NCBI GenBank assembly: GCA_026125385.1
Contig: JAHCLG010000013.1
Span: forward strand, 3,866-67,865
From: Legionellales bacterium
GTDB lineage: Bacteria; Pseudomonadota; Gammaproteobacteria; JAHCLG01
DNA length: 64,000 nucleotides
Direction: 5' to 3'
The notes under the pieces are model-generated. The model was not told the origin of the DNA. It made no database searches and saw only the letters and a list, made by a program, of their open reading frames with translations. Numbering within the stretch: the stretch's first letter is position 1; the number at the start of each line of letters is the position of its first letter. Position numbers and translations under genes: made by a program. This document shows positions 16,375 through 47,197 of this stretch, piece by piece.

Positions 16375-16577
16375 TGATTTTAGATAAACAAGGTTTAGCA
16401 GTAGCGGCTAATCAATCAGGTTTTCGTGAAGAAATATTAGAAAAAGTAACTCTGTTTGAGGGGATATCCAGAAACGATAAGGTGAGTGAATAGCAGTAAT
16501 ATGACAATCGTCCCAAAAATCGTGTGATTCAAAATGGCAAAACGTGCAGAACAAAAAACTTTATACAACAGTCATCC

Positions 16578-29559: not shown

Positions 29560-29564
29560 TTAGC

Positions 29565-30338
29565 TTATGTAATAGATTTCACCCAATCGGGGAAAAGCTT
29601 AACTTTGTTAATATCAGCCGAATTGAATAAAAATGGCCGGACATCATTGGCCAAATCACTAAAATCTACTTTTGAGCATTTTTCAATTAGGTAATCTTTT
29701 AATTTATTAATATTGTCTATATTCAGTTTCAATTTAAGATATTCGAAATTAGGTTTTGTTTTATTGGACAAAAAAATGATATCAAAAAAGTCTCTTCCCT
29801 TCGGCCTTTTTCGGTTAAACGCTGCATATAATTTTTGACTAAAAAGAACATCTAGTGGGGAGGTAACTATGTTTTGCAGGACATCAAAACGGTTAATAAG
29901 TTTCAATTCTGTGTTATGTGGAAATGACTGAGGTTCAGTATCAAATTGAATTAATATGATTTCTTCTTTAATTGGAGATAATTTATTGTCATAAAGAAGC
30001 TTTGGGATTTTAATTCGACAACGAAAAGCATTCTTCATGGTATTTTTTATGGTTGACTCAAATCCTTCATTTTTTAATGATGAGCATATAATGTGAGTTA
30101 ACTCAGTCAATGATTCCCGATTTAATCCTAAATTATCGAAATCAAGGTCTTCTGAAAATCGCTGGTTTTGATATAAGATCCTTAAAGCAGTTCCGCCAAT
30201 AAAAGACAAATCTTTTCCATATTTGCTAGAATAAATAATATTCAGTATTTTATATTGTAAATATTCTCGTAAAATAAATCGTTTGAATGGACGTAGCTTT
30301 TCTGGATATTCCTTTTCAATCTCATTAATTAGTAACAT
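29565..30338 (-). CDS. AbiEii/AbiGii-family nucleotidyltransferase toxin (DUF1814)
   Basis: GGTAL...RFSEDLDFD nucleotidyltransferase signature. 257 aa. Overlaps the upstream AbiEi gene by 14 nt. Confidence 0.7.
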   Translation of the reverse strand: MLLINEIEKEYPEKLRPFKRFILREYLQYKILNIIYSSKYGKDLSFIGGTALRILYQNQRFSEDLDFDNLGLNRESLTELTHIICSSLKNEGFESTIKNTMKNAFRCRIKIPKLLYDNKLSPIKEEIILIQFDTEPQSFPHNTELKLINRFDVLQNIVTSPLDVLFSQKLYAAFNRKRPKGRDFFDIIFLSNKTKPNFEYLKLKLNIDNINKLKDYLIEKCSKVDFSDLANDVRPFLFNSADINKVKLFPDWVKSIT

Positions 30339-30960
30339 AATCGAGGAACCTCATAGTACGTTGAGTGAGTTTTCTTTTATCAAAAATTTTTAAATAGCAA
30401 AATAATTTTTCTCGATCAATTTTGGCGTTCAATTCATTTTTATCAAAACGTAATTCGTAAAAGAAATTCAGATTATCAGCTTCTGGCATTAAGTATAAAA
30501 AATCTAATAATGCCTTTTCAAGAAATGCAATATTCACTTTGCCAAATTCAGTATCATGTAAATAATAACCAAATATCAGCGTTGGTTTTAGATGGCGATA
30601 ATTAAAATTCGCAATCTCAGACTCGAAACGTTGAGTTTTTTTGCTAGTAATGGCCGTAATTTCAAATACTCCTTCAGGGATCAAATTATGCAGCGCAAAG
30701 ACGAGTTCGAGAGAAATATAGGAAGGATAAACTAGCTTGTTAGCAATCAACATTAATAACTCTTCGGTGAGAGGAATATCAGCAAATAGATACCAGCCCC
30801 GTATTATTCGTTTGATATAACCTTTTTGTTCCCATCGGGTTAGCTCTGACGACCGAATGCTCGGTGCTTTGAGGCGAAGGGTCTCCAGCGAGAACAAACC
30901 AAGCGGTTTGAGGTACTTTTCTAAGTCGCGATAATGCATTTTGTTTCTCGAAGTATACAA
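30325..30960 (-). CDS. AbiEi-family antitoxin/transcriptional regulator
   Basis: 211 aa. Winged-helix N-terminus (LTRWEQKGYIKRIIRGWY). Overlaps the AbiEii gene. Confidence 0.6.
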   Translation of the reverse strand: MYTSRNKMHYRDLEKYLKPLGLFSLETLRLKAPSIRSSELTRWEQKGYIKRIIRGWYLFADIPLTEELLMLIANKLVYPSYISLELVFALHNLIPEGVFEITAITSKKTQRFESEIANFNYRHLKPTLIFGYYLHDTEFGKVNIAFLEKALLDFLYLMPEADNLNFFYELRFDKNELNAKIDREKLFCYLKIFDKRKLTQRTMRFLDYVTN

Positions 30961-33242: not shown

Positions 33243-34946
33243 TTGCCCCCTCACGCCCTCCCTTTAATTACTACGCTCGCGGCTGCATTTGGGTTAGCAT
33301 TGCTCTTTGGATTTATAGCGGCACGCTTAAAAATTCCCACTTTAGTCGGATATTTATTAGCAGGTATCGTGCTAGGACCATTCACGCCAGGATTTGTGGC
33401 TAACACCTCCATTGCACACGAATTATCTGAAATTGGTGTCATGTTATTAATGTTTGGTGTGGGACTGCATTTTTCTCTTAGCGATTTACTGACAGTGCGT
33501 AAAATCGCTGTGCCTGGTGCATTAATTCAAATTATTGTGGCCACGCTATTAGGGGTTGCTGTTGCTTTGCCTTGGGGATTTGGTTTGGGTGGTGCTTTAA
33601 TTTTTGGTTTAGCACTGTCGGTTGCCAGTACAGTGGTTTTATTGAGAGCGCTCGAAAGCCAAGGATTACTGGAATCCATTAACGGTAGAATTGCCGTGGG
33701 TTGGTTGGTCATTGAAGATCTTGTTATGGTCTTAGTATTGGTTCTATTACCACCGTTGGCAAAATTATTGGGTGGTGCTTCTCCCCATTTTCAAAGCAGC
33801 GATTCTCTCTGGTTGATTCTGGGGGTAACTCTGCTGAAAATTGCGCTCTTTATTACTTTAATGCTAGTGTTGGGACGGCGATTTTTCCCAAAATTATTGT
33901 GGTGGGTGGCAAGTAGTGGTTCACGCGAATTATTTACACTTAGTGTGATAGCGGCCGCGATTAGTATAGCTTACTTAGCTTCCATTTTATTTGGTGTTTC
34001 TTTTGCATTAGGGGCTTTTTTTGCAGGAATGATGATGCGCGGTTCCGATCTCAGTCATCGAGCTGCAGAAGAATCATTACCCTTTCGCGATGCATTTGCT
34101 GTATTATTTTTTGTTGCCGTTGGCATGCTATTTGATCCTAAAATATTAATTTTAGAACCATTCCACGTATTGGCAGTCGTGGGAATTATTATCATTGGTA
34201 AATCGCTTGCAGCTGCTATGCTCGTACTCTTTTTTCGCTATCCACTCAACACGGCTTTAACGGTTTCCGTAAGTCTCGCCCAAATAGGTGAATTTTCTTT
34301 TATTCTGGCAGGCCTTGGTGTTGCCCTCGGTTTATTACCCGTCAATGGACAAAATTTAATTTTAGCCGGCGCATTAATTTCAATCGCAGTTAATCCTTTT
34401 ATTTTTGCCGCAGTGAATCCATTTTTAAATTGGCTACGCAAGCACTCGGCATTAGCGCGAAAATTTGAACGCGCAGCAGATCCTTTAACCGAATTACCCA
34501 TGACTACAGCGCCAAAATTTTTATCAGAACAAATTGTATTAGTGGGTTATGGTGATCGTGTGGGAAGCCGGATTGCACAAGCTTTTATTCAAGAGGATAT
34601 TCCTTATGTCGTAGTTGATCAAAATCGTGAATTAGTTGAAGAATTAAGAAATCAAGATATTGCGGTGGTATCAGGCGACGCAGCAGAACCGAGTGTGTTA
34701 ATTCAAGCTCATATTGCACGCGCAAAGTTAATGGTAATCGCATTACCTAATACCTTGCATGTGCAAAGAATGATTGAAATAGCGCGTATGCTGAATCCTA
34801 AAATTGAAATTGTCGTGCGCACGCATTTTGAGGAAGAAGCTGAACGTTTAGAAAAACAAGCGCGTGTAAAAGCATTTTTAGGAGAAAAAGAACTCGCACA
34901 TAGCATGAGTCACTATGCTTTAACCTACTGGAAAACTGAACATTAA
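33243..34946 (+). CDS. KefB/KefC-family monovalent cation:proton antiporter (CPA2) with C-terminal TrkA-N domain
   Basis: Na+/H+-exchanger membrane domain (LGYLLAGIVLGP) plus a Rossmann KTN domain (VLVGYGDRVG). Exact start uncertain. Confidence 0.75.
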   Translation: MPPHALPLITTLAAAFGLALLFGFIAARLKIPTLVGYLLAGIVLGPFTPGFVANTSIAHELSEIGVMLLMFGVGLHFSLSDLLTVRKIAVPGALIQIIVATLLGVAVALPWGFGLGGALIFGLALSVASTVVLLRALESQGLLESINGRIAVGWLVIEDLVMVLVLVLLPPLAKLLGGASPHFQSSDSLWLILGVTLLKIALFITLMLVLGRRFFPKLLWWVASSGSRELFTLSVIAAAISIAYLASILFGVSFALGAFFAGMMMRGSDLSHRAAEESLPFRDAFAVLFFVAVGMLFDPKILILEPFHVLAVVGIIIIGKSLAAAMLVLFFRYPLNTALTVSVSLAQIGEFSFILAGLGVALGLLPVNGQNLILAGALISIAVNPFIFAAVNPFLNWLRKHSALARKFERAADPLTELPMTTAPKFLSEQIVLVGYGDRVGSRIAQAFIQEDIPYVVVDQNRELVEELRNQDIAVVSGDAAEPSVLIQAHIARAKLMVIALPNTLHVQRMIEIARMLNPKIEIVVRTHFEEEAERLEKQARVKAFLGEKELAHSMSHYALTYWKTEH

Positions 34947-35159: not shown

Positions 35160-35414
35160 CTATTCCTTTAAAATGCCTTCTTGATCAGCTTCAAAATTTA
35201 ATTCTCGAATATAATCTTGAATTAATTTTGCCGAAATAGCTAATTTTTGCGAGGCTTGCGAACACTCGGAAAAATATTGTTTTGATGCCTTGTCGTTAAA
35301 ATTAGCTTGCGGTTCAATGGCTGCTAATAATTGAGAAATAATAGCACTTAATTCTGAAATCACTTCTGCCAGTGGCAACAGATCATGTGCGACTTTTTTA
35401 ATGGTACGGGTCAT
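35160..35414 (-). CDS. hypothetical small protein (84 aa)
   Basis: ORF directly downstream of the XRE/S24 repressor on the same strand. No motif recognised. Confidence 0.4.
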   Translation of the reverse strand: MTRTIKKVAHDLLPLAEVISELSAIISQLLAAIEPQANFNDKASKQYFSECSQASQKLAISAKLIQDYIRELNFEADQEGILKE

Positions 35415-35440
35415 GTGGTTTCCTTTTACAAAATATCATA

Positions 35441-36085
35441 TTATCCATTCCTCGAACGTTTCCAACATTCTCGATAGACGCCAATAATCATCACTTCATC
35501 GTGTAATTTTAATTTGTTAGGGTGATTTAACGGTGAACTTAAAATAAGATGATCATTCATCTTGTGTGCAAAGCGAATTAATATCTCATTAGCTGGGCGC
35601 GTATATGCCAAGATAATTTCGCCATCGTTAAAATGAAGCAGTTGTTCGAATATAATCATATCGCCTACTTCAAATTTTGGCGCCCATTCATGGCTAGTCA
35701 CATAAATGCTTATGGAATTATTTTCATACACTTGGGAGGTGATGATAAAGTTATTCGTGGTTAGTGATTTTTTTTCGTTACTTTGATAATACATGCGCAG
35801 TTGATCGGGGTAATATAAGGGTACGCGGTAGGTTTTGATTGACGTATTTTCTTGATGAATTTCACCTTGTCCAGTGGCTAGCCAAGTTTCATTCACATTC
35901 AAATATTCTGCAATTTTTTTCGCATTTTTAGAAAATTTAACATCATTATTGAGAATATAGTGCAATCCAGAAGGTGACAACCCCAGTTTTTCCGCCATAT
36001 GCGATTGTTTAACCCCCATGGTATCAACGAGATACTTGAGGCGTTTCGATACACTGTCTAGATTGTCGAGCTTTTCGGAGGTCAT
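35441..36085 (-). CDS. XRE-HTH / S24 (LexA/CI-like) two-domain repressor
   Basis: N-terminal HTH (QSHMAEKLGLSPSGLHYILN). C-terminal S24-like beta domain. GDM appears in place of the canonical GDSM, so autocleavage is uncertain. Confidence 0.6.
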   Translation of the reverse strand: MTSEKLDNLDSVSKRLKYLVDTMGVKQSHMAEKLGLSPSGLHYILNNDVKFSKNAKKIAEYLNVNETWLATGQGEIHQENTSIKTYRVPLYYPDQLRMYYQSNEKKSLTTNNFIITSQVYENNSISIYVTSHEWAPKFEVGDMIIFEQLLHFNDGEIILAYTRPANEILIRFAHKMNDHLILSSPLNHPNKLKLHDEVMIIGVYRECWKRSRNG

Positions 36086-36130
36086 TAGTGTTTAGCTCTC
36101 TCACCGGAAAAGCGGTAGCATAACAGTAAC

Positions 36131-36144
36131 TGAATAATTATTCA
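36131..36144. promoter_or_regulatory. perfect 14-bp palindrome TGAATAATTATTCA (operator candidate)
   Basis: Lies in the divergent intergenic region between the repressor and the 90-aa ORF. A related site GAATAAATATTC is at 36245-36257, and there are several TTCGAA cores. Confidence 0.4.
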
Positions 36145-36306
36145 AATTATATTAAAATTTTGGTGTTGAAATTTCGAAACCGTTCTATATTCGAATAAAA
36201 TTGCTATTTGTCGCGTTATAACTTGAAAATTACGCTTGACTTCGAATAAATATTCAGTATTATGTCACTGTCTTTTCGAATTTTTAGTTAGAGATAGGGG
36301 TAGTCA

Positions 36307-36579
36307 ATGCAATCTGTCGATGAACAACCAGTCAATCACCAAGCCATTCCGTTAGCGCGTTTTAAAATTGTGAAGCATTATTATGATCAATCCATTGCTC
36401 GCGTAATGTTGTACGATCATGAAAATGCGCAAACTCATTTGTTGACATTGCCAGAACTCGTGCAGCACGATGATTTTCTCACTAGTCTCAACGCAACGGA
36501 TTTACGCATCGTGATGTCGATGTGGGTCGATTATGAAATATTACAGGAACGTCAAGCCATTCGCGATCTTATTCATTAA
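36307..36579 (+). CDS. hypothetical protein (90 aa), divergent from the repressor
   Basis: ORF with a plausible start. Followed by a 12-bp inverted repeat (GAGCAATTACCA/TGGTAATTGCTC at 36633-36684) and then a T7 run. Confidence 0.45.
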   Translation: MQSVDEQPVNHQAIPLARFKIVKHYYDQSIARVMLYDHENAQTHLLTLPELVQHDDFLTSLNATDLRIVMSMWVDYEILQERQAIRDLIH

Positions 36580-36833
36580 CGTAAATATTTTTCAGACGAG
36601 CAGAAAATTCCTGGCTTGCTATTTTCTGATAAGAGCAATTACCACGTTTATTAATACGTTCTCTGTGTGTTATGGTAATTGCTCGTTTTTTTGATAGTTT
36701 CAAAAGTGCAAACTGCAGTTATTCAAAAGGATTAAAAGTAATGGAGAATCATTATTCTAGTAAATTATTGTAATATTTTCACCATATTTGGTTTTTTTTC
36801 TCTCTCTGATTTAATATATTAGATTTTTGTATG

Positions 36834-37934
36834 CTATATATTCCCGCATATTTTACATGACGACATTTTTTCCCAGGTTTCCTTTACAAGTAATTTATTA
36901 GATTGAAAATCATAAACAATCAGATTACCTAAGGCGTTCGGAGCAAGAATATCAGTAGTGATTTTTATAAACTCAGATAACATCAATCCTGTTAGAATAG
37001 ATACTAAAGGTGCAATTGTTATATTCGGAATTCTGGAGCTCACAAAATTATCATTTTCTATGAAATCTAAGAATAATGTTCCTGACTCTCTGGCAGAATT
37101 CTTCCAGCATTCAATACACCCGCTTTTCCCTGGTATGACTGAATAAAAGAAGCAATATTTCCAATCTAAAGCACCACAAATAAAAGGGACTTTTTCATTG
37201 ATGCAGGCCTGGTTTACCCAGTTTAGGATTTGGTTTCTGGGTTGATCAATAACACTAATAACAAACTCTTGGCCAGATATAATATTGGAAACGTCATCAT
37301 TCGATGATATTTTAATATTAATAAAATTTAGTTTTGCATTAGGCAAAAATGCTTTTATTTTTCTTTTTGCAATATCAACTTTGCGTAGACCCACATCAGA
37401 TTCATCGTATATTATTTGTCTATTGAGATTTGATAACTCGATTTTATCAAAATCTACGGCTTGTATTTGATGTATACCTAATGCTGCAAGTTCATAAAGT
37501 ATATGGGAACCAGCTCCACCGAGCCCTAATAGTGTAACTTTAGTATTTTGTAGTTTTTTTTGATAATTAAATTTATTATGACTAGAAGATGTGTAGGCGC
37601 CAAAAAATTCAATATTTCGTTCCCAGCGTTCAATCTCATAGGGTGAAAATTCTTTACTATTTAGAATGACATTGTCTTCTAGTAAATAAGCTTTATCAAG
37701 TGATGTCAGCAGGTCATTTAAATATGATACTTCTTTTGGATGAGTGTGATTAAGGATTTCTTCTATTTCTTTGACAGTTTTTTTGCCATCCAGTAGCTGG
37801 CATACCGTTTTGATAAAACCTTTACTATCACCCAGCTCTATGGCTGTTCCCGGACTTTTAAAAAAATATATTTTATCTTCAGATGTGTAATATTCAACCA
37901 TAGCCTTTAGTATTGGCCGACTAGTGTTTTTCAT
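36834..37934 (-). CDS. ThiF/MoeB/MccB-like E1 adenylyltransferase with N-terminal RRE (RiPP recognition element)-like domain
   Basis: The N-terminal roughly 120 aa show a PqqD/RRE-like pattern (LLDGKKTVKEIEEIL...DLLTSLDKAYLL). This is followed by the E1 P-loop LLGLGGAGS and DFDKIELSNLNRQ. The C-terminus has CxxC pairs (CIECW, CKICG), a Zn tetrathiolate arrangement as in MoeB/MccB. Confidence 0.7.
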   Translation of the reverse strand: MKNTSRPILKAMVEYYTSEDKIYFFKSPGTAIELGDSKGFIKTVCQLLDGKKTVKEIEEILNHTHPKEVSYLNDLLTSLDKAYLLEDNVILNSKEFSPYEIERWERNIEFFGAYTSSSHNKFNYQKKLQNTKVTLLGLGGAGSHILYELAALGIHQIQAVDFDKIELSNLNRQIIYDESDVGLRKVDIAKRKIKAFLPNAKLNFINIKISSNDDVSNIISGQEFVISVIDQPRNQILNWVNQACINEKVPFICGALDWKYCFFYSVIPGKSGCIECWKNSARESGTLFLDFIENDNFVSSRIPNITIAPLVSILTGLMLSEFIKITTDILAPNALGNLIVYDFQSNKLLVKETWEKMSSCKICGNI

Positions 37935-37958
37935 AATTTTTCACTTAGAGCAAATTGA

Positions 37959-38018
37959 TTACGCTACTTGAGCTGTACCCGCTATACTTATATCAATTTC
38001 TTTTATTTCGAAACTCAT
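37959..38018 (-). CDS. 19-codon ORF MSFEIKEIDISIAGTAQVA, candidate precursor/substrate peptide
   Basis: GAGGTG Shine-Dalgarno exactly 6 nt upstream of the ATG. Stops 24 nt before the E1-like gene on the same strand. Confidence 0.4.
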   Translation of the reverse strand: MSFEIKEIDISIAGTAQVA

Positions 38019-38233
38019 TTCTCACACCTCTTCATTTATTCAATAGATGACATATTAGCATAAGACTTGCAACTGAACAATTGATGTATATTGAATGGCT
38101 CTCTGGCGTTTCCCTAACAAATAAAAGCTTTTATGATTGGTTAAAGTATGGTAATTTACTGCATAGTATGTTTTTTACTATAAAAAACAATTCGTGAATT
38201 TCCTTCGCAATTATAAATGGTAGATACCACTCG

Positions 38234-39676
38234 ATGCTTAAGTGTTTTAAATTTATTTTATGTGTTTTGGCAACCCTAAGTTATTTATGTGGTAGCGCCG
38301 CTGGGTTAACCATCCCTCTTGGAAATAATAAAGTTTCACTTGATCCATCCTATGCTTTGGATGTATTGAGTTTATTTGTTGCGAGACAAATTAATTGTCA
38401 ACTGATACGCAACCAGAATGGTAATTACAAATTAGAAGCGGCAGAGTCTCTTAAATTTATATCTCCTACAGAATTACAAATAGTATTAAATAAAAATGCA
38501 AAATTTACTGATGGTTCTCCCGTAACAACATATGACGTCTTAGCAAGTTTTAATTATATAAAAAAATATCGAGCATTTTATCGAAATTTTTTTTCATGGA
38601 TTAATGATATTAAAATCATAGATCAAACAAAGTTATTAATCCGTTTGAAAAAACCTGCCCCGCAACTTTTAAATATGCTTGCATCACCAATTTATTCAAT
38701 ATATAAAAAATCTTTTTTAGCCAGAGCAGAAAAAAATAAATCTCTTTGGCATAACCCAATTGGTTGTGGTGGGTATAAAATACTGAAGTTTACAAAAAAG
38801 GAAATCCAGCTTGAACCAATACATAAGGGATTGCCAATTAAGTTTGTTTTTAATAATGAAAATCAAATATCGTCTGCTGATATTGATAAATATGATTTAA
38901 TCACATTGAAAGTTAGCCAAAACTTAAAGAAGTTGTCTAATTTCCAGGATATAAAAATATTTGATCCGTCACAGCTTTATGTCGGGTTAAATGTTTCTAA
39001 ACCTATTTGGAGTAACAAAAGCACACGATGCTCTTTTCTTTCAAAAATTGATGATAATGATTTAAAAAAATTATATGGTGACTCTGGAATTATAGCTAAT
39101 GATTTCCTACCTCAAGGTACTCTGGGGTATAATAAGAACTTCAATTTTGCAGCAATAATTCATGCTAACACTGAAGATTATTCGTCCTTAAAAATCACAA
39201 AGGATATATGCGTCGCATATATAGGGATTAGTATACCTAAAGATCTTATAAAAGGTTATCTAGATACTATAGAAAAAATTTCACCTCGCATTAAGCTTTT
39301 ATCAATTTCAAATCCTAGTAAATTTGCTCCAATTTTCTTAAAGAAAAAATGCGATATAATTATTTTTAGCTTAAAATCTAGTTATTATGATGGTTATGAA
39401 TATTTAGATGTATTCGCAGATAAAGATGAAAATTTCACTGGAATTCATGACGAAGATCTTATTTCTAAAATAAAAAAGAGCCAATACGTTACCGATTTAA
39501 ATAAGCGCGCAATGCAATATCAAAAAATTATTAATAATATTGCAAATAAATGCTATATAAGACCATTGATCACGGTCCCAATGAGAGATATTTATGTGAA
39601 AAATATATTTAATGCTCCTGGTATTTCTATAGGTCCATATGCCGAGTATTACCTTGGAAATATTGCTTTAAAATAG
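38234..39676 (+). CDS. family-5 (peptide/nickel type) periplasmic solute-binding protein, orphan
   Basis: Signal peptide plus an SBP_bac_5-like N-terminus (KFTDGSPVTTYDVLASFNYIKK). No adjacent ABC permease or ATPase. Confidence 0.6.
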   Translation: MLKCFKFILCVLATLSYLCGSAAGLTIPLGNNKVSLDPSYALDVLSLFVARQINCQLIRNQNGNYKLEAAESLKFISPTELQIVLNKNAKFTDGSPVTTYDVLASFNYIKKYRAFYRNFFSWINDIKIIDQTKLLIRLKKPAPQLLNMLASPIYSIYKKSFLARAEKNKSLWHNPIGCGGYKILKFTKKEIQLEPIHKGLPIKFVFNNENQISSADIDKYDLITLKVSQNLKKLSNFQDIKIFDPSQLYVGLNVSKPIWSNKSTRCSFLSKIDDNDLKKLYGDSGIIANDFLPQGTLGYNKNFNFAAIIHANTEDYSSLKITKDICVAYIGISIPKDLIKGYLDTIEKISPRIKLLSISNPSKFAPIFLKKKCDIIIFSLKSSYYDGYEYLDVFADKDENFTGIHDEDLISKIKKSQYVTDLNKRAMQYQKIINNIANKCYIRPLITVPMRDIYVKNIFNAPGISIGPYAEYYLGNIALK

Positions 39677-39683
39677 TTATTAA

Positions 39684-39945
39684 TACCCATATTGAGCTAC
39701 CCTCTGATTAAAAAATCGAATTTATTCTGAACAAATTAGTAAAATTTTGCTTACATTAATGTTGTTTAAACCCTTTCTCACTGGATCCATTAACTTTCAC
39801 TCTACTAACTGCTTCTATGAGTGATCAATTTGCACGATCTTCATTTCTACGAGCAATATAACTTTCTTAGAAAGACTCTAAGTTAATGTTTTTTTTATAT
39901 TTAATAAAATCAATTTTTTATGAAGTGGGGTAGCTCAATGTGGGT
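39684..39945. repeat. MITE-like segment bounded by 19-bp imperfect inverted repeats (TACCCATATTGAGCTACCC ... GGGTAGCTCAATGTGGGTT)
   Basis: Inverted repeats at 39684-39702 and 39927-39945 match 17 of 19. They flank about 225 bp in the convergent gap between the SBP and MATE genes. Confidence 0.35.
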
Positions 39946-40027
39946 TAATATATGATACGCGTAAATTTTGTTTTTAATGGCTTTTCATGTATGCTTAAAT
40001 CGGGAAATTTTAATCTCGGTTCAATAT

Positions 40028-41380
40028 TCAAACTAAGGATTTCCCATATCGTTTTTCAAGTTTCAAAATATCCTTGTAACACAAAATAGCAAATACTGTT
40101 GAGAATAAGGTCATTATTAATCCAAATGTTTTAGGCGTTGCATGAATAAATAAGATAAACACTTCTGTGATACCAATTAAAATTAATATTTCAGTTAGAA
40201 AATAATTTTTTGTAACCATATGGCTATTTTTTGTGGCACGTAAAGGCACAGTGAATCCGTTGCCTATTTGTGCAATAAACGAACTTCCCAAAAAAATAAT
40301 TACATATTGCATTTGATCAGGATTGGGGATATAACCATACACTAATTTAAATAAAGGTGACACGTAGAGTAAAGAGATCGTTAAGAACAACGAAGTTGGA
40401 ATGATGCCTGTATAAAAATATATTGGCCACCATGTGACATTTTCGTTACATTCTTGAGAAAAAGTTTGTGACGCTTCTCTAATTGCTATTTGCATTGCTG
40501 CAACAAATGGCATGCAAATAATAAATGCTAATTGTAATGTTAGTTGATAGGTAACTAAAAAATTTGAAGAACTTATAAAATAGACAAATTGCAAAGCAAG
40601 AATAAAAGGTGTAATCCCTCTTATTAAATAAACACCTAGTTCGCCCCACCATACTTTCATAATCATAGGCAAAGGATATTTATCCCAGCCCATTCTATTT
40701 TTTGATAGAAAATAAAGTCCAGAAGAAATAGCTAGGATATATAATATAGTAGTAGAGGATATTAATATTATCATTGGATAATAAATAGAATTTACTGTGG
40801 TACTTCCGTGAAAATAGTAACTAACAATCTGACTATCTATAATAATATTTAAAATAACTAGAACAAAAGCTATTTTCATACTAAAATTTTGTTTTTTAGA
40901 AGCAACTAATATACCATCGACGGTGCAATAAAGTGTTTGAAGAATCATATTTATGAGGCCAATTCGTAGATATGCTATTGCTAAGGGAATATAAGATGTT
41001 TGAACTTTACAAAACGTTACAAATTGATATGAAAATACCCCTGCGGTAATGGCTATGCATAGCGCAATTGTTCCTGATAAAAGTAAATGATTAATGAGTA
41101 CTGAGCCTTCCTTACCTTTACATTCTTCACGGTTAAAGAATACTAGACAACTTATATAAGTTGCTAATCCAATGAATTGTCCAAAAGTAATAAATACATA
41201 CTGTAAATTATGTATATATAGTGCTGATTGACCTAAAACGGCAATATATCGATTATCAATTATAGGGAAAAATCTCTGAAATATTTGTGAAAAAACGATG
41301 GGTAATAGAAGAATAAAATGATGTTGCAAATTCTCTGGTTTTTGAAAGCATTTTTTTATAATAGCTGTAAATAATTCCAT
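40028..41380 (-). CDS. MATE/MOP-family efflux transporter
   Basis: 450 aa, about 12 TM segments. MATE-like N-terminal pattern PIVFSQIFQRFFPIIDNRYIAVLGQSALY. Confidence 0.6.
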   Translation of the reverse strand: MELFTAIIKKCFQKPENLQHHFILLLPIVFSQIFQRFFPIIDNRYIAVLGQSALYIHNLQYVFITFGQFIGLATYISCLVFFNREECKGKEGSVLINHLLLSGTIALCIAITAGVFSYQFVTFCKVQTSYIPLAIAYLRIGLINMILQTLYCTVDGILVASKKQNFSMKIAFVLVILNIIIDSQIVSYYFHGSTTVNSIYYPMIILISSTTILYILAISSGLYFLSKNRMGWDKYPLPMIMKVWWGELGVYLIRGITPFILALQFVYFISSSNFLVTYQLTLQLAFIICMPFVAAMQIAIREASQTFSQECNENVTWWPIYFYTGIIPTSLFLTISLLYVSPLFKLVYGYIPNPDQMQYVIIFLGSSFIAQIGNGFTVPLRATKNSHMVTKNYFLTEILILIGITEVFILFIHATPKTFGLIMTLFSTVFAILCYKDILKLEKRYGKSLV

Positions 41381-41407
41381 AGATTAAACCTTCTTTCCAT
41401 TAATATC

Positions 41408-41466
41408 TACTTCTTCGTGTCTTTAACTCTGCGCCTCGCCTAGAATCCAATTGCTTTGAGTAAATA
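41408..41466. repeat. copy of a dispersed 60-70 bp repeat (other copies at 8641-8709 and 48380-48449)
   Basis: The sequence CTTCGTGTCTTTAACTCTGCGCCTCGCCTAGAATCCAATTGCTTTGAGTA aligns at about 85% with the other copies. Confidence 0.5.
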
Positions 41467-41686
41467 CACGACCTTAATTAAATTTGACACTTATTCATAA
41501 CGTTTATATTTTAAGTTGTGTAGCGAATTAAGCCTACATAAAGGCTATAACTGATACATTAGCTTGTAAATTTAACTCATCAAAATGGTTGAAATATTAA
41601 ACATATATTTGGAGCACATAATAACATAAAATAACGCTAAATAATACTATTTAATGTACTCCTGCATGCTTCTCTTGAAAAGATTG

Positions 41687-42594
41687 TTAGTTTAATTTTT
41701 TTCTACATTCAAACAAAATCATCGGTATGAATAGCTCTGGTGTTTCACTATCCTTACTGATAATAATTTTATTGACACTAAGATTAGTCTTATTAAGTAA
41801 ACTCAACCATTCTTCTTTAGAACGACTTAAGCTATTCCAGTTAACCATCAAATTTAAATCATTTAATACGGCTCTTAAATACCCTAGATGTGACTTTTGC
41901 GGCAACATAAAATCGACAATGAGCAATTTAGCTTCATTAGACAAACTTTTTGCGCATTCATTCAGAATTTTAATGGCCATGTCATCATTCCAATTCAATA
42001 ATGTGCGGCATAAGACATACAGATCACCACTTTGGGGAATACCTTGAAAAAAATCACCACCGATTATGGTTACGCGCGTCAGACAATTATAGGCATTTAG
42101 AACTTTTTCAGCGTTTTGTACCACGGTTGGTAAGTCGAATAAGATACCAGTTTGATGAGGATTGTTTTTCAATACATTGCCCAAAAAATGCCCTTGAGCA
42201 CCAGCAACATCTACAATTCGATGGTAACTATCAAAATTATTTTGCCAAATTTTTTGTTCCAGGCAGGTTCATGAGTTTTAAGGGTGAATTCAAATTCTTC
42301 AAATGCTTCATAAGCTCTGATTAAATGAGGTGACCTCGCACGAGCTAATTGTGGGGTTAACTCTGTGCAATAAACCCTATCCTGAGAGATAAGTACGATT
42401 TCATGTGCTTCTAACACTCTTAAAAAACGTTTAAGGGCGTCGTGATTAAATTGTAATGTTGTCGCTAGTTCTAGTGTGCTAATACCGGTACTAGGAATCA
42501 ACTTATCTAGCTTGTACTCACCAGCTAGTAAAATTACTTTAGCGGTCACATAGCTAAGCGCCAAGGTATAAATTTTATGAGGATTCTTTTGCAT
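41687..42594 (-). pseudogene. class-I SAM-dependent O-methyltransferase (COMT-like family 2) split by a frameshift in a T6/A6 homopolymer
   Basis: The N-terminal dimerisation fragment (42211-42594) and the C-terminal catalytic fragment (41687-42184) are in different frames. Reading the second frame upstream restores YHRIVDVAGAQGHFLGNVLKN, the SAM-binding motif. The shift maps to the homopolymer run at 42250-42255. Confidence 0.7.
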
Positions 42595-42840
42595 TGGAGT
42601 CTCAAGTCGGTTTACTATGGGAGATAAGTTTAACTGTTTACACGATTAACCACAATTTAAACATGGCGCATATTTATTCTAATAAGTTTACATTGAAAAC
42701 TTCAATAAGAAATATCTTTCTAGGTACTTTTTTAGTTATTTTTATTTCAGCGTTTTTTTTTATCGCTGTATTTTAGTAATCAAGAAGCTGCCACGCAAAT
42801 TCGGCAGAACACGTTAGCTTCACATAAAATTTTAGTTTCA

Positions 42841-44862
42841 TTGATTGAACCGAGTTTGGTTATTTCCAATACCTTAGAAATTCGAAGGCTATTGGCATTA
42901 GTTAGTAGTGATGAGCACACTTTTTCAGTAATTGATGATAATAATATTGTGTATTTGCCCGATTATAAATTTCAAGATTTAGTCGATGAAATTATAAAAT
43001 CGGATAAAATAAAACATGGCTGTGAAATCAATGATTTTTTCACAATAGCATTTCATGGTCGAACATATCAAGTATTATGCTCAATAATTAGCAAGCCTGG
43101 AATCATATCCTTTAAAGGAAGCCCATATTTAATCAGCTTTAATTTGGAAAATCCTTTAAAAATTTCAATTAATACACTTCTCTATTTTTTAATATCTACG
43201 ATATTGATATTTTTAATTACCTATTTTTGGTTTGGGATTAATTTAAAGAGAAAGTTATTAAATTATCTGTATTCACTTGAGGTTCAAATCAAAAATAAAA
43301 ATTTCAACTTCATAGAGAATGTTTCTGCGGTTAAAGATGATAAAATACCTCTTGAAATCGAGAATATTCGCGCGGCTTTTCAACAGCTATTAAGCGATCT
43401 GGGTAATGAAACGAATAAACGAATTGCCAGTGAAAAAAAAGCCGCCATTAGCACACTAGCAGCTCAGGTTGCTCACGATATTCGTTCACCTGTCGCTGCA
43501 ATTCAAATGCTAAGCAAAGAAAACTGCTTATTGCCAGAAAATACTCGTAAATCGTTAAAAGATGCGGCAGCTCGAATACAGGATATTGCCAATAATTTAT
43601 TGTCTCAATATAAAACTGGTGCTAAAGATACGGCAGAGCAGAATAGTTTATTTTTAATTTCAGATGCAATTAGTGCTGTTGTTTCTGAAAAAAAATTACA
43701 ATATTCAGAACGCAAACTAAACTTGCATATTCAAGCACAAGGTGATGCCAATCTCGCTTTTATATATTCAGACCCCATTAACTTTAAACGAATGCTTTCC
43801 AATTTACTCAATAATTCGATTGAGGCCATAGGTGAAGAGGGTTCTATTTCCATTGTGCTTCACTCATCACAAGATTATGTTGATGTGCGGATCACGGATG
43901 ATGGTTGTGGTATGTCTTCCGTAAAAATAGCTAATATTCTTAATGGCAATATTACTTCAACTAAAAATCAAGGTTCCGGTTTAGGCTTGCAACATGCGCG
44001 AGACTTTATGAAAAACGCCGCGGCAAAATTTGATATTCAATCAACAGAACGTATCGGTACCACTATTCACTTACAATTTAAACGAAGTGCTTCTCCTCCA
44101 TGGTTAGCTGATAAAATTTCTATTAAAAAGCAGAGTACTATTATCATTCTTGATGACGATGTTTCCATTCATGGCGCATGGGATCGATATTTTGCCGATC
44201 GAATTAATGTTGAGTATGGCATTAATATTCTGCATTTTCACCAAGCAGCGGAGTGTATTCTTACAATAAAAAATAATTTCAACACGCTGAAGGATGTAAT
44301 TATATTAACGGATTTTGAATTACTTAACCAAAATATGAATGGTTTAGATGTAGTTGAACATAGCGGTGTAAATAATACAATATTAGTCACCAGTTATTAT
44401 GATGACCGAAAAATATTAGCAAGGGCAGTATCACTGAATGCTAAAGTATTACCTAAAATGTTAGCCAGTGAGATTGAAATTGAAATTAATGAACAGCCTC
44501 AAAATTTTAAAATTCCTGAGGCTCCAAAAAATGAAGCTATCGATATAGTTTTGCTGGAAGATAATCAAGAGTTATCTGATATTTTCGCATTTATATGTGA
44601 ACGCAATGGAAAGCAGGTAAAAATCTATCATAACCCTTACTCATTATTTACGGATTTAAATACTTTCGACCCTCTTGCTACCAAAATTTGTCTTGATCTT
44701 AATCTCGGCTTCGATCCTGTCAATGGAATTGATATTGCCATTCTTCTGCATAATAAGGGATTTAAGCAAATTTATCTTGCTAGTGGCAGCCAGATCGATC
44801 CAAATTCTGTTCCCGAATATTTAATGGTATTAAAAAATAAAATCGATCTGACGCGTCTTTAG
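42841..44862 (+). CDS. hybrid sensor histidine kinase with two C-terminal receiver-like domains
   Basis: One clear TM segment, a HisKA H-box (VAHDIRSPVAAI), HATPase G-boxes (DDGCGM, GSGLGL), then two CheY-like modules with divergent acidic pockets. Confidence 0.7.
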   Translation: MIEPSLVISNTLEIRRLLALVSSDEHTFSVIDDNNIVYLPDYKFQDLVDEIIKSDKIKHGCEINDFFTIAFHGRTYQVLCSIISKPGIISFKGSPYLISFNLENPLKISINTLLYFLISTILIFLITYFWFGINLKRKLLNYLYSLEVQIKNKNFNFIENVSAVKDDKIPLEIENIRAAFQQLLSDLGNETNKRIASEKKAAISTLAAQVAHDIRSPVAAIQMLSKENCLLPENTRKSLKDAAARIQDIANNLLSQYKTGAKDTAEQNSLFLISDAISAVVSEKKLQYSERKLNLHIQAQGDANLAFIYSDPINFKRMLSNLLNNSIEAIGEEGSISIVLHSSQDYVDVRITDDGCGMSSVKIANILNGNITSTKNQGSGLGLQHARDFMKNAAAKFDIQSTERIGTTIHLQFKRSASPPWLADKISIKKQSTIIILDDDVSIHGAWDRYFADRINVEYGINILHFHQAAECILTIKNNFNTLKDVIILTDFELLNQNMNGLDVVEHSGVNNTILVTSYYDDRKILARAVSLNAKVLPKMLASEIEIEINEQPQNFKIPEAPKNEAIDIVLLEDNQELSDIFAFICERNGKQVKIYHNPYSLFTDLNTFDPLATKICLDLNLGFDPVNGIDIAILLHNKGFKQIYLASGSQIDPNSVPEYLMVLKNKIDLTRL

Positions 44863-44935: not shown

Positions 44936-47197
44936 TTATTTCCGCTGCCAAGCATCTTTTAATTGCGCGGCAAATGCGTTCATGAGTTCGGGTTTTGGAG
45001 AATTGATGACAGGTGATTTAAGCGGTTTTGCGGATTTAGGTGGTTTATGGCCTTGCTTCATCGTTAAACTAATACGTTTACGCGCTTCATCAACTTCTAA
45101 TACTCGCACTTTGACAATTTGTCCGACTTTCACTTCTTGATGCAAATCTTTCACAAAATGATCGGCAATTTCGGAGACGTGGACTAAACCATCTTGATGA
45201 ACACCAATATCGACAAACGCGCCAAAATTCGCCACATTAGTGATGACACCTTCTAGTTCCATACCAATTTTTAAATCTTTTATTTCATTGACACCTTCAA
45301 TAAATTTTGCCATTTTAAATTCAGGACGCGGATCACGACCGGGTTTTTTTAACTCGTCAAAAATATCGCGTAAGGTAGGCAAGCCTACTTGATCGCTGAC
45401 AAATTGTTGGGGATCGAGTGAGTTTAATAAAGATTCATTACTAATTAATTCACTGACGGGTTTTTTTACTACCGCAGCAATTTTTTCGACGATAGCATAA
45501 CTTTCTGGATGAACCGCAGAGCCATCTAAGGGATTTTTTCCATTAATAATTCTTAAAAAACCCGCTGCTTGTTCAAAGGTTTTTGCACCTAAACGAGGTA
45601 CGGATTTAATTTGTTCGCGATCGTCAAAACGTCCATGTTGTTCGCGATATAAAACAATATTTTTAGCAATTGTTTCATTTAAGCCTGAAATACTGGTTAA
45701 TAATGGCACCGATGCGGTATTAATATCAGCACCGACGGCATTCACGCAATCTTCCACGGTGGCTTGCAAGGAATGTTCGAGTTTTGTTTGATTGACATCA
45801 TGTTGATATTGACCCACACCAATAGCTTTCGGATCAATTTTTACTAATTCTGCTAGTGGATCTTGTAAGCGTCTGGCAATCGATACTGCTCCGCGATAGG
45901 ACACATCTAATTCTGGGAATTCTTTTGCTGCTAGTTCAGAGGCAGAATATACCGAGGCACCCGCTTCTGAAACCACAATTTTAGTCATGCCCAACTCGGG
46001 TAGTTGTTTAATTAATTCATTCGCGAGTTGATCGGTTTCGCGTGAAGCCGTACCGTTGCCAATACTAATTAATTTTACCTTAAAATGTTGGCATAATTTA
46101 CCCAGCATTGTTAACGCTTCATCCCATTGTTTTTGCGGGGGATGTGGGTAAATCACCGTATGAGTTAATAATTTTCCTGTACTATCGATAATGACCGTTT
46201 TCACACCTGTGCGGTAACCGGGATCTAATCCTAAAACTACATAATTACCAGCGGGAGCTGCCATTAATAAATTTTTTAAATTATCACGAAAAACTTTAAT
46301 CGCTTCTTCATCTGCGCGATTTTTAAGTTCAAGCATAATTTCCAAATCAAGTTTGGATTTTAATTTAATTTTCCACGCCCAGACGATGGTTTGCCAAAGC
46401 CAATGAGTAGGTGATGGTTTCAACTCTGGTGAAAATGTTTTAGCAATTAAGCCATAACAATGTTCGTTTACCGTTTCATCGCGAAATTCTAAATTAACAT
46501 GAAGAAAATTTTCTTTACGTCCACGAAAAATAGCGAGTAAACGATGCGAAGGAATGGTTTTAATGCTTTCGCTAAAATCAAAATAATCGGCAAATTTAAT
46601 GCCAGATTCTTCTTTATCTTTTGCAACTTTGCTAATGATAATGCCTTCTTGCCACAGCTTATCGCGTAATTGTTGCAACAGATCAGCTTGTTCACAAAAT
46701 AGTTCAGCTAAAATATGACGGGCACCTTCAAGTGCCGCAGCCGCATCGGCAATTTCTTTTTCGGGATTTATATAGGATTTCGCACAGGTTTCAGCATCAC
46801 AAGCTAACTCTGTTAATAATTGTTGTGCCAGTGGTTCAAGACCTGCTTCTTTGGCTATTTGAGCTTTTGTGCGACGTTTAGGTTTATAGGGTAAATAAAG
46901 ATCTTCTAAACGAATTTTGCTATCGGCATTTTCAATTTCTTGTTTTAATTCAGGACTGAGCTTGCCTTGTTCTTCGATGGATTTTAAAATTGTGTGTCGA
47001 CGATCTTCTAATTCGGTTAAATAAGTTAAACGTTCAGTTAAATCTCTTAGAACAGTATCCGATAAGCCACCCGTTGCTTCTTTACGATAACGGGCAATAA
47101 ACGGCACCGTTGCCCCATCGTTTAATAATTCCATGGTGGCGGTAACCTGAGAAGATTTAATATTCAATTCCTTGGCAATCGTTTCAACAATATTCAT
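44936..47197 (-). CDS. tex: transcription accessory protein Tex
   Basis: 753 aa. Tex N-terminus (GATVPFIARYRKE), YqgF/HhH and a C-terminal S1 domain. Confidence 0.9.
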   Translation of the reverse strand: MNIVETIAKELNIKSSQVTATMELLNDGATVPFIARYRKEATGGLSDTVLRDLTERLTYLTELEDRRHTILKSIEEQGKLSPELKQEIENADSKIRLEDLYLPYKPKRRTKAQIAKEAGLEPLAQQLLTELACDAETCAKSYINPEKEIADAAAALEGARHILAELFCEQADLLQQLRDKLWQEGIIISKVAKDKEESGIKFADYFDFSESIKTIPSHRLLAIFRGRKENFLHVNLEFRDETVNEHCYGLIAKTFSPELKPSPTHWLWQTIVWAWKIKLKSKLDLEIMLELKNRADEEAIKVFRDNLKNLLMAAPAGNYVVLGLDPGYRTGVKTVIIDSTGKLLTHTVIYPHPPQKQWDEALTMLGKLCQHFKVKLISIGNGTASRETDQLANELIKQLPELGMTKIVVSEAGASVYSASELAAKEFPELDVSYRGAVSIARRLQDPLAELVKIDPKAIGVGQYQHDVNQTKLEHSLQATVEDCVNAVGADINTASVPLLTSISGLNETIAKNIVLYREQHGRFDDREQIKSVPRLGAKTFEQAAGFLRIINGKNPLDGSAVHPESYAIVEKIAAVVKKPVSELISNESLLNSLDPQQFVSDQVGLPTLRDIFDELKKPGRDPRPEFKMAKFIEGVNEIKDLKIGMELEGVITNVANFGAFVDIGVHQDGLVHVSEIADHFVKDLHQEVKVGQIVKVRVLEVDEARKRISLTMKQGHKPPKSAKPLKSPVINSPKPELMNAFAAQLKDAWQRK

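Follow-up and report, generated by a model that had tools for sequence, protein, structure and literature searches.

The window analysed here, 64,000 nucleotides of DNA from a Legionellales bacterium, contains an island that raises one question: do its genes form a single system that produces, exports and senses a peptide modified by an E1-like adenylyltransferase, as a sequence-only reading had proposed, or have separate functions come to lie side by side? The island is bordered on the left by a KefB-like gene (Na_H_Exchanger and TrkA_N domains; 33243-34946) and on the right by tex (44936-47197), and domain matches confirmed both borders. The drop in base composition claimed for it was also seen in 1-kb windows, with a GC content of 0.28-0.34 across ~36.5-44.5 kb vs 0.37-0.42 in the flanks. 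Other GC dips occur elsewhere in the window, for example 0.30 at 29.5-30.5 kb. All the gene calls previously made in the island stand, and we consider here which of them belong to the proposed system.

At its left end the island encodes a 214-aa repressor (35441..36085, minus strand) with XRE HTH and S24 domains in Pfam, the latter at 19.3 bits vs a cut-off of 23.3. Its match to phrog_4 (E 1e-16) supports its description as a cI-like repressor, and a tie between it and the peptide operon is not supported: the operator-like palindromes (36132..36281), comprising the only two copies in the 64 kb of the exact palindrome GAATANNTATTC (at 36132 and 36244) and four TTCGAA sites at 36172-36281, lie in the repressor's own divergent promoter, between its gene and a 90-aa ORF, rather than ahead of the peptide operon. 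The XRE/S24 regulators associated with the E1 family share its architecture, with a similarity so faint (E 1e-3 to 0.04) that orthology is not demonstrable from these sequences. The 90-aa ORF (36307..36579, plus strand), divergent from the repressor gene, may encode its cro-like partner. Neither the 90-aa protein nor that of an 84-aa ORF downstream of the repressor gene (35160..35414, minus strand), both of which had been listed in the island, showed a significant match in Pfam, NCBIfam, PHROG or PADLOC or a homologue in the related loci; they are unique to the window and were set aside as system parts. The proposed tailoring enzyme, an O-methyltransferase with a dimerisation domain and Methyltransf_2 in Pfam (41687..42594, minus strand), fared no better. 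Three-frame translation revealed that it is split into 41687-42184 and 42211-42594 by one frameshift that falls within an A-run (~42240-42255), and since no homologue of it lies next to any related E1-family or module locus, a tailoring role is not demonstrable.

The precursor peptide and its E1 enzyme

The E1 enzyme (366 aa; 36834..37934, minus strand) had been read as MccB/PaaA-like with a peptide-binding N-terminal domain, and sequence and structure comparisons agree. An N-terminal peptide-clamp or RRE-like domain (~residues 1-95) is followed by a ThiF-type adenylation domain (PF00899, E 6e-44) with a GxGxxG motif and a Cys4 site; G137-x-G139-G140-x-G142, C273xxC276 and C360xxC363 do not vary across 23 homologues. 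Sequence matches in the PDB included MccB at E 8e-32 and, across residues 6-203, PaaA at E 6e-29, and in Foldseek the AF2 model (pLDDT 89.9) aligned to MccB over 364 columns (TM 0.81), whereas the MoeB and ThiF structures covered the C-domain only. As judged by these comparisons, the E1 is a full-length MccB/PaaA-type enzyme, not a ThiF/MoeB one. An ordinary sulfur-carrier activating enzyme of the ThiF/MoeB kind, or an anti-phage Cap2-type E1, would account for the PF00899 domain and for the weak matches in PADLOC (E1-E2 models, 54 bits at best) and in NCBIfam (ThiF and MoeB models). However, the equivalog scores are far under their cut-offs (ThiF 105 vs 275; MoeB 93 vs 377), no E2 or JAB domain accompanies it, and the conserved peptide encoded upstream does not end in GG. 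The scores, the fold coverage and this peptide effectively refute such an identity, to which we attach almost no credence.

The peptide, MSFEIKEIDISIAGTAQVA, is encoded by a 19-codon ORF (37959..38018, minus strand), with GAGGTG placed 6 nt upstream of its ATG and its end 24 nt before the ATG of the E1 gene. Residues 1-10 form an amphipathic leader, and the 9-residue C-terminal core starts at Ser11, which is invariant in the family. The proposal that this ORF is a precursor gene was borne out by its conservation: precursor-type ORFs (15-23 aa, SD-preceded, Ser at -9) lie upstream of ~31 of the 35 E1 homologues whose identity is 31% or higher, across phyla, with Coxiellaceae MAGs at one end and Streptomyces at the other, and a motif scan found exactly one of them per E1 locus. 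In all the recurring precursors the Ser stands exactly nine residues from the variable C-terminus, compared with 11% of the small ORFs at these loci as background, and F3, S11, A13, G14, A16 and P18 are each kept through 2-4 synonymous codons. The leader of the family is basic or amphipathic and strand-like, and the gammaproteobacterial consensus reads M-x-F-x-V-K-x-I-x-V-S-L-A-G-x-A-x-P-x. Among the ThiF-like RiPP classes described in the literature, we found none that has such a precursor. On the strength of this conservation, the ORF and the E1 are taken to be a genuine, widely conserved and uncharacterised peptide-modification pair.

It is at the C-terminus that a microcin C-like Trojan horse has to be weighed, in which the E1 would put a nucleotide on the last residue and the peptidases and acetyltransferases of the relatives would provide MccF/MccE-like immunity. 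MccB is the best match both in sequence and in structure, the peptides of five close relatives (L161-L164 and L166) end in Pro-Asn, and MlrC or M19 peptidases and transporters are encoded in the clusters of these relatives, acetyltransferases in that of L165. Yet the stable phosphoramidate formed by MccB depends on the Asn side chain (PMC12596934, PMC4010828), whereas the peptides of this family end in A, F, Y, W, G, N, T, S or L and that of the window ends in Ala, its last three positions being QVA vs x-P-N/Y/F/W in the closest relatives. Profile searches with Pfam and NCBIfam found no MccD/E/F homologues, and the invariant Ser(-9) would be left unaccounted for. We regard a microcin C-like product as improbable, and the earlier statement that the locus fits neither microcin C, for want of a C-terminal Asn and MccD/E, nor the TOMM class, since YcaO is absent, holds good.

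Linkage to a putative export and sensing module

Next to this pair lie the genes for an orphan family-5 solute-binding protein (SBP_bac_5, PF00496; 480 aa; 38234..39676, plus strand), which has a signal-peptide-like N-terminus and is divergent from the peptide-E1 operon, a MATE-like membrane transporter (PF01554, E 2e-8; 450 aa; 40028..41380, minus strand) and a hybrid sensor histidine kinase with a broken frame (42663..44862, plus strand). That these are linked genes finds support on other contigs, where their orthologues share an operon with an E1 and a precursor. The order in L167 is peptide-E1-MlrC-MATE-Hexapep acetyltransferase-SBP-kinase, with no gap or overlap above 10 nt, and in L165 it is peptide-E1-MlrC-Hexapep-SBP-kinase. 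The window MATE protein is 43.5% identical to the one encoded after MlrC and before the acetyltransferase in the L167 E1 operon (L167:2878-4233) and 42% identical to that of L169; the SBP is 44-48% identical to those encoded directly upstream of the orthologous kinase in L165, L167, L168 and L169 (at best 48%, E 1e-157); and the kinase is 30% identical to that of L165, sensor domain included (E 5e-70). The same gene order is found in L170 and L171 (SBP, then kinase, with the MATE position also occupied), and the SBP gene is directly upstream of the kinase gene in five of the six related loci. These genes are not random neighbours of the peptide and E1, and we consider the SBP a candidate ligand receptor for the kinase and the MATE-like protein a candidate exporter. 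The island encodes no ABC permease or ATPase, and no response regulator cognate to the kinase.

The further claim, that production, export and sensing form one system, stood only in part. The shared operons of L167 and L165 speak for it, but in L168-L171 the MATE-acetyltransferase-SBP-kinase module has neither an E1 nor a peptide gene in the surrounding 10 kb; these lone modules were negative in the precursor-motif scan, and also carry an XRE-type HTH protein and a ~310-aa response regulator. Most E1 loci have in turn a peptidase, Vut_1 and an XRE/S24 regulator in place of the SBP/kinase module, and both SBP and kinase are absent from 9 of the 12 gammaproteobacterial E1 loci (window not counted), so the two modules are separable. 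They could be unrelated and simply adjoin, with a peptide/E1 product, antimicrobial or other, unlinked to a MATE-SBP-kinase unit for small-molecule signalling whose signal has another source, such as the hexapeptide-repeat O-acetyltransferase missing from the window; the location of the window genes on different strands agrees with this. Against it, the two modules are rare (the SBP subfamily is small, 39 clusters among 5.8 billion proteins), yet three independent arrangements place them next to each other, and L167 and L165 unite them in a single operon, read in one direction with almost no intergenic gaps. We consider such independence possible but doubtful, and a single system of precursor, E1, exporter, SBP and kinase plausible on this comparative evidence.

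How much of it the window retains is a separate matter. The first transmembrane segment of the kinase starts at the ATG at 42663, in another frame that is broken at a T9 run (42753-42761), so this gene is also frameshifted or mis-assembled; the kinase call was right, while the ORF listed for it is N-terminally truncated. From 42841 the rest of the frame encodes a periplasmic domain, TM2, HisKA, HATPase_c and two divergent receiver-like regions, neither of which reaches E 0.01 with Pfam Response_reg. Read by eye, these regions keep plausible acidic-pocket residues. In addition, an inverted MATE gene and the broken methyltransferase part the SBP from the kinase, and the genes that normally accompany this E1 family are missing: the MlrC or M19 peptidase (a peptidase is present at every close relative), Vut_1, a ~190-aa protein and the hexapeptide-repeat acetyltransferase. 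Both the absent partners and the kinase disruption had been overlooked before. The missing MlrC/M19, Vut_1 and Hexapep genes, the frameshifts in the kinase (T9) and methyltransferase (A-run), the rearranged gene order and the divergent peptide C-terminus would suit a decaying remnant, that is, an acquired AT-rich island that has lost its peptidase and acetyltransferase, is accruing frameshifts and makes nothing in this organism. But the peptide, E1, SBP and MATE frames are intact, the E1 keeps all the family-invariant residues, and both frameshifts are single-base homopolymer differences, for which MAG assembly errors or phase variation are possible. We think it unlikely that nothing is made, although the window copy, with its missing peptidase and acetyltransferase, altered gene order and kinase frameshift, is a rearranged and reduced version that may be partly non-functional.

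A proposed pathway and its relation to known systems

The account that we favour, and hold to be probable, is that of a precursor/maturase pair in an uncharacterised clade of MccB/PaaA-type (RRE-ThiF-like) systems, whose product would be exported and self-sensed. All the known ThiF-like RiPP reactions begin with the adenylation of a carboxylate, followed by capture by a nucleophile (PMC12596934). If this common chemistry applies, the N-domain of the E1 would dock the leader and the enzyme would adenylate the C-terminal carboxylate of the peptide, which is the sole carboxylate in several family members; indeed, acidic residues are lacking in the L002 peptide, which leaves its C-terminus as the one site for adenylation. 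A nucleophile would then capture the acyl-adenylate, and because its spacing to the C-terminus is fixed, the Ser(-9) hydroxyl is the best candidate, which would speculatively give a 9-residue macrolactone. We found no report in the literature of a Ser hydroxyl as nucleophile for ThiF-like RiPP enzymes, and the role of Ser(-9) may lie in recognition, not in catalysis. The gene linkage suggests that the product would leave through the MATE-like transporter and that the orphan SBP would detect it in the periplasm and signal through the hybrid kinase. The outcome, if this is true, would be a secreted, self-sensed peptide.

The closest parallels are with two antibiotic systems. Like MccB of microcin C7 (E. 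coli; PDB 3H5N, 6OM4), the E1 combines an N-terminal peptide clamp with a ThiF adenylation domain and a Cys4 zinc site, and a short precursor gene lies directly upstream, with an exporter nearby. In contrast to that system, identity to MccB is ~24-25%, the precursor has 19 aa instead of 7 and ends in Ala instead of Asn, MccC/D/E/F homologues are absent, and the invariant residue is Ser(-9), not a C-terminal Asn. PaaA of pantocin A (Pantoea; PDB 5FF5) is the better sequence match for the N-terminal leader-binding domain, and its precursor shares a strand-like M-x-K/F leader; unlike pantocin A, this precursor family has no Glu-Glu-Asn core, some members having no acidic residue at all, the core is at the extreme C-terminus and a PaaB-type partner is absent.

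IndF (indolylamide), EnfB (enterofaecin cyclic imide) and GrcB (Glu-Cys thiolactone) are ThiF-like RiPP macrocyclases, and the present enzyme is likely to resemble them as an RRE-ThiF fusion: a carboxylate of the short precursor would be adenylated and then attacked by an intramolecular nucleophile, so as to close a ring close to the C-terminal end (PMC12150305, PMC12596934). It differs from them in its precursors, without NWYFI, WWIII or Glu...Cys motifs, and in its hosts, which are Gram-negative Legionellales and Actinobacteria instead of Lactobacillales. As for the sensing half, LuxP-LuxQ and TorT-TorS are examples of SBP-dependent two-component sensing, and as in these systems an orphan periplasmic SBP is encoded beside a membrane histidine kinase with a periplasmic domain; in the relatives the SBP-kinase pair is translationally coupled. 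ABC transporter genes are absent. What would set the present pair apart is that its SBP belongs to family 5 (peptide, nickel or opine type) and that its ligand would be a ribosomal modified peptide.

The predicted maturase and its precursor

The adenylyltransferase encoded at 36834-37934 (- strand), hereafter E1, belongs to the MccB/PaaA-type RRE-ThiF group and is neither a sulfur-carrier nor a defence E1. It matches PF00899 at 150 bits (Pfam), and its top PDB sequence matches are MccB (E 8e-32, residues 84-365) and PaaA (E 6e-29, residues 6-203, an alignment that takes in the N-terminal domain), with ThiF and MoeB far weaker. Across 23 homologues no substitution occurs in the glycine-rich motif, the catalytic NRQ/K/D residues or either CxxC pair, nor at G137, G139, G140, G142, R172, K185 and D230. 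An AlphaFold2 model with these 23 homologues as input reached a pLDDT of 89.9, its strand-rich N-terminal domain with three helices exceeding 90; Foldseek aligned the model with full-length MccB (TM 0.81, 364 columns) and next with PaaA, and placed MoeB and ThiF on about 270 residues, in the C-terminal domain only. PaaA alignment, invariant residues and Foldseek thus agree with the sequence-only reading, which had proposed an RRE-like N-terminus, an intact P-loop, a CxxC...CxxC site and MccB/PaaA logic.

Other assignments were rejected, and E1 does not group with ThiF or MoeB, a placement that would have spoken against that proposal: it scores 105 bits with the ThiF model TIGR02356 (cut-off 275) and 93 bits with the MoeB model TIGR02355 (cut-off 377; both NCBIfam), and the peptide encoded upstream, unlike ThiS and MoaD, is not ubiquitin-like and lacks a GG end. 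As for a CBASS Cap2/E1-E2 defence enzyme, PADLOC models run over the island gave weak matches to the adenylation domain (≤54 bits) and nothing beyond them. The protein database contains at least 296 relatives of E1, of which the 120 top-ranking ones listed all share 31% identity or more with it. The closest among the matches listed (45-55% identity) are almost all metagenomic, one coming from a Coxiellaceae MAG; more distant ones occur in Streptomyces, Nocardia, Pseudomonas, Burkholderia, Vibrio, Histophilus and Fluviispira.

The 19-codon ORF already singled out as the precursor (37959-38018, - strand; MSFEIKEIDISIAGTAQVA) has an ATG preceded at 6 nt by GAGGTG and a stop codon 24 nt ahead of the E1 start. 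Judged by its counterparts in relatives, it is a real, conserved precursor. Of the 35 loci whose E1 is at least 31% identical and for which sequence upstream is available, about 31 carry a short ORF of 15-23 codons with a Shine-Dalgarno sequence, 17-190 nt upstream of E1, and every one of these roughly 31 peptides has a serine exactly nine residues from its C-terminus (Ser(-9), Ser11 in the window peptide), against a background of 11% of all small ORFs in the same loci. In 12 gammaproteobacterial genes, F3, S11, A13, G14, A16 and P18 persist although each is spelled by 2-4 synonymous codons, so selection is at work on the peptide. A loose six-frame motif scan found exactly one precursor-type ORF per E1 locus, along with two spurious matches, in L166 and in L170, which has no E1 (L numbers denote related loci in other contigs). 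Examples are the peptides of L161 (MTFTIKQIKVSLAGCAIPN), L163 (MIFTIRYIPVSLAGCAVPN), L001 (MNFEVKHIPVSLAGVAVPF), L082 (MDFEVKHVPVSLAGAATPW), L165 (MKFKVTYVKVSLAGSASPY), L167 (MQFEVTYIPVSLAGSASPY), L009 from Streptomyces (MTVAMKTRKASIAGSTVEG), L008 from Pseudomonas (MTFEKASSAGDSQIG) and L015 from Brevibacillus (MKIQAKKVESVRTTAVAA). The C-terminal residue varies (A, F, Y, W, G, N, T, S or L), and the QVA tail of the window peptide is atypical. A WTTCGAAW site lies inside the start of the precursor ORF (38006-38013, ATGAGTTTCGAAATA; one of 11 in the window), where TTCGAA may merely reflect conserved Phe-Glu codons.

E1 clades at 25-30% identity have other short peptides upstream, so the Ser(-9) family is one clade in a larger superfamily. 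Such other peptide families were seen at L017:7833-7913, L019:7628-7693, L021-L028, L097, L101 and L120; they include a peptide with a Cys-rich tail (…AAGCCCCCGCC) in Bacillus sp. SA1-12, one with a WWIIA tail, recalling the enterofaecin WWIII type, in a Ktedonobacteraceae MAG, and a Solirubrobacterales family, ...VPAxS[IV]xKGx, with Lys at -3.

Putative production and sensing modules

In the closest relatives E1 is followed by a convergent or co-directional gene set comprising a peptidase, either MlrC/M81-type (486 aa) or an M19 dipeptidase, a Vut_1 transporter, a 170-192-aa protein and an XRE-HTH/S24 regulator; actinobacterial relatives have an MFS transporter and an M3 peptidase. Vut_1, the 170-192-aa protein and MlrC/M19 are near-constant downstream of E1 (L161-L164, L166, L001, L002, L081, L090). 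Vut_1 proteins are of the YhhQ type, putative vitamin or queuosine-precursor transporters, and a role of this protein or the 170-192-aa protein in export, co-substrate import or immunity is possible. Searching the window by tblastn with M19, MlrC, Vut_1, the 170-192-aa protein, Hexapep, MFS and cyclase proteins of close relatives gave no match at E ≤0.1: the partner genes are missing, not pseudogenised past recognition.

A second conserved set adjoins several E1 clusters (L162:6487-7604, L164:158-3742, L167:9169-15463) and is absent from the window; it encodes a 116-120-aa protein (44-57% identity among loci), an Acyl-CoA_dh_N-like protein, a Fer2 ferredoxin, a 250-aa protein, two or three ATP-grasp proteins and an MFS transporter, and could represent a further module for peptide modification. 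Type IV secretion genes (TrbC, VirB3/VirB4) adjoin E1 or sensing modules in two relatives (L162:1-5000 and 14568-16726, with a phage-type integrase also in L162; L171:12703-17462), which suggests that the modules travel on integrative conjugative elements; none of these genes flanks the window's island.

Three further window genes recur with E1 elsewhere. L165 has the order peptide-E1-MlrC-Hexapep-SBP_bac_5-kinase, and L167 a single tight operon, peptide-E1-MlrC-MATE-like-Hexapep-SBP-kinase, followed by an XRE/S24 gene. Judged by alignment, the window's family-5 solute-binding protein (SBP; 38234-39676, +; Pfam/NCBIfam), its transporter with a weak MatE match (40028-41380, -; Pfam/NCBIfam) and its hybrid histidine kinase (42841-44862, +; Pfam/NCBIfam) are orthologous to these proteins: the SBP is 48% identical to that of L165 (E 1e-157), the kinase 30% (E 5e-70, periplasmic sensor region included), and the MATE-like protein 43.5% to that of L167. 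The SBP subfamily is very small (39 clusters). Look-ups centred on it returned a canonical unit of an XRE-type HTH gene, a response regulator (~310 aa), a MATE-like gene, a hexapeptide-repeat O-acetyltransferase-like gene, SBP and kinase. The SBP and kinase genes are immediate neighbours or overlap at five of six loci (L165, L167, L168, L169, L170); in the window they lie 3.1 kb apart. An orphan SBP coupled to a periplasmic-domain kinase with no ABC genes, as found here (the window's island has no ABC permease or ATPase), is the arrangement of SBP-dependent kinase sensors.

In L168-L171 the canonical unit stands by itself, with neither E1 nor precursor nearer than 10 kb. Genes for production (peptide/E1/peptidase) thus form one module and those for export/sensing (MATE/acetyltransferase/SBP/kinase) another, and the two can be separated; three of the eight contexts seen, the window counted, join them. 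The earlier view that transporter, SBP and kinase form one system with E1 gains plausibility from their operon linkage to peptide and E1 in relatives, although the modules can part company.

At the window's far end, a membrane histidine kinase gene (HATPase_c; 62050-63375, +) is followed by a response regulator gene (63437-64000, +) cut by the window end. Its product is 37% identical (E 1e-32) to the regulators of ~310-324 aa that head the modules of L168 and L169; the L169 regulator has its best PDB match in 6sy9 ('Response regulator', E 8e-31), which may be Legionella LqsR. The window's regulator, 19 kb from the island kinase, could supply the output partner which that kinase lacks.

A seemingly reduced copy in an AT-rich island

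GC content is about 38-40% over the whole window and falls to 0.28-0.34 (1-kb windows) between ~36.5 and 44.5 kb, a stretch flanked by a KefB-like gene (Na+/H+-exchanger + TrkA_N, 33243-34946) and tex (44936-47197). Searching the window revealed no integrase and no flanking direct repeats delimiting a mobile island, so that the status of island is based on composition alone; another sharp drop (0.30) was seen outside it, at 29500-30500. Rfam (E ≤1) gave no match across the island and a tRNA scan of the whole window none; predicted sigma-70 promoters and terminators were no more frequent than in shuffled sequence. The space separating the convergent SBP and MATE genes is filled by a ~261-bp element (39685-39945) between 18-nt inverted repeats (ACCCATATTGAGCTACCC / GGGTAGCTCAATGTGGGT, one mismatch). 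Its arms have no other copy in the window, and it has no Rfam match; the rearrangement that parted SBP and kinase may have left it behind as a MITE-like scar.

All genes named by the sequence-only reading were recovered by ORF listing and Pfam/NCBIfam scans; not all belong to the system. ORF listing gave two ORFs with function unassigned, of 84 aa (35160-35414, -) and 90 aa (36307-36579, +), and Pfam/NCBIfam an XRE-HTH/S24 repressor (35441-36085, -) and an O-methyltransferase in two pieces (41687-42184 / 42211-42594, -). The 84-aa, 90-aa and methyltransferase proteins had no tblastn match in 171 related loci and were dropped as components, and with them the idea of a tailoring methyltransferase. 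The repressor is cI-like (phrog_4); as an orthologue of the cluster regulators it was likewise dropped, the similarity being faint (E 1e-3 to 0.04) and closer to an ICE/phage-type repressor in L162. Its proposed palindromic operators are there: the 64 kb contain just two exact copies of the palindrome GAATANNTATTC (36132 and 36244). Both fall within the 150 bp that separate the repressor gene from the 90-aa ORF, together with four copies of TTCGAA, the hexamer also present inside the start of the precursor ORF.

Two genes are broken. Reading the SAM motif DVAGAQG of the methyltransferase requires one frameshift in an A-run at ~42240-42255 (A4/A6), and the kinase, earlier called without a frameshift, is interrupted at a T9 run (42753-42761), its first transmembrane segment being read in another frame from an ATG at 42663. 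Both defects are single-base homopolymer differences, and the nearby core genes tex, kefB-like and gap are intact; MAG assembly error, gene decay or slipped-strand phase variation could each account for them. With no peptidase or acetyltransferase, a scrambled gene order, two frameshifts and the QVA tail, the system looks reduced in this genome, and the window copy may be defective. The finding as such is real and stands on firmer ground than the sequence alone could give, but the picture of a complete island for production, tailoring, export and sensing is overdrawn for the window locus.

Candidate chemistry and known classes

ThiF-like RiPP enzymes share a mechanism in which a carboxylate is adenylated and then captured by a nucleophile (PMC12596934). 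By analogy, the precursor leader would dock on the N-terminal domain of E1, which would adenylate the C-terminal carboxylate for capture; as some precursors contain no Asp or Glu (that of L002, for example), the C-terminus is the only carboxylate left in them. The most economical nucleophile would be the Ser(-9) Oγ, giving a 9-residue macrolactone, an outcome we consider possible though doubtful. Alternatively, the adenylated C-terminus could form an EnfB-like backbone imide or meet an external nucleophile, and relatives with Asn-ending precursors, only 5 of the 13 gammaproteobacterial ones, could follow MccB-like chemistry.

As to fate, gene linkage suggests that the modified peptide would be exported by the MATE-like pump and detected by SBP and kinase. 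The whole chain, in which the 19-mer is cyclised through an ester between the invariant Ser and the C-terminus, exported by the MATE-like protein and read as an autoinducer by SBP and hybrid kinase, seems to us unlikely; if true, Gram-negative Legionellales/Coxiellaceae-like bacteria would possess a quorum-sensing circuit whose peptide signal is a RiPP. The recurrent operon tie to exporter, SBP and kinase suggests that Gram-negative relatives of intracellular pathogens, in which peptide autoinducers are rare, may signal by modified peptides and, were the link real, would offer a signal/receptor pair reconstitutable from sequence alone. The clade, which spans uncultured Legionellales to Streptomyces, Pseudomonas, Burkholderia and Vibrio, is directly testable through its minimal 19-aa substrate with an invariant Ser at a fixed C-terminal distance, and is a promising source both of new chemistry for C-terminal macrocyclisation and of a compact biocatalyst.

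The family of ThiF-like RiPP enzymes is small and growing fast, with five reaction types characterised and most sequence space unexplored (PMC12596934, PMC12250964). In the described chemistries MccB forms a phosphoramidate, PaaA an indolizidinone, GrcB a Glu-Cys thiolactone, EnfB a cyclic imide and IndF an indolylamide (PMC12596934, PMC12250964, PMC12150305). E1 shares with MccB/PaaA-type maturases a ThiF adenylation domain, a fused N-terminal clamp/RRE and an adjacent conserved precursor, but none of the described classes (MccB, PaaA, GrcB, EnfB, IndF) has a precursor like the window's: (i) the microcin C class requires Asn for the succinimide and phosphoramidate, while the window peptide ends in Ala, and the island has no MccC MFS, MccD/MccE or MccF peptidase domains; (ii) for the pantocin A class, the window peptide lacks Glu-Glu-Asn, and that of L002 any acidic residue; (iii) TOMMs were rejected, there being no YcaO in the island or related loci; and (iv) for the enterofaecin, Ind and Grc types, the window peptide lacks WWIII, NWYFI and a C-terminal Glu-x3-Cys, a WWIIA-ending peptide being found only in the distant locus L019. 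The poor fit to MccB and TOMM classes suspected from the sequence therefore holds. Bantysh et al. 2014 reported MccB/PaaA homologues with non-Asn or unidentified peptides, and a global survey of 2025 mentions several RRE-ThiF clusters as uncharacterised, so that the existence of such a clade was anticipated, new ThiF-like RiPP clades being already expected by the field. The full-text literature to mid-2026 (subscription-only papers lie outside this scope) describes no Ser(-9) clade and no ThiF-made lactone; what is new here, and not described, is the precursor signature and the clade's tie to the SBP-kinase sensor.
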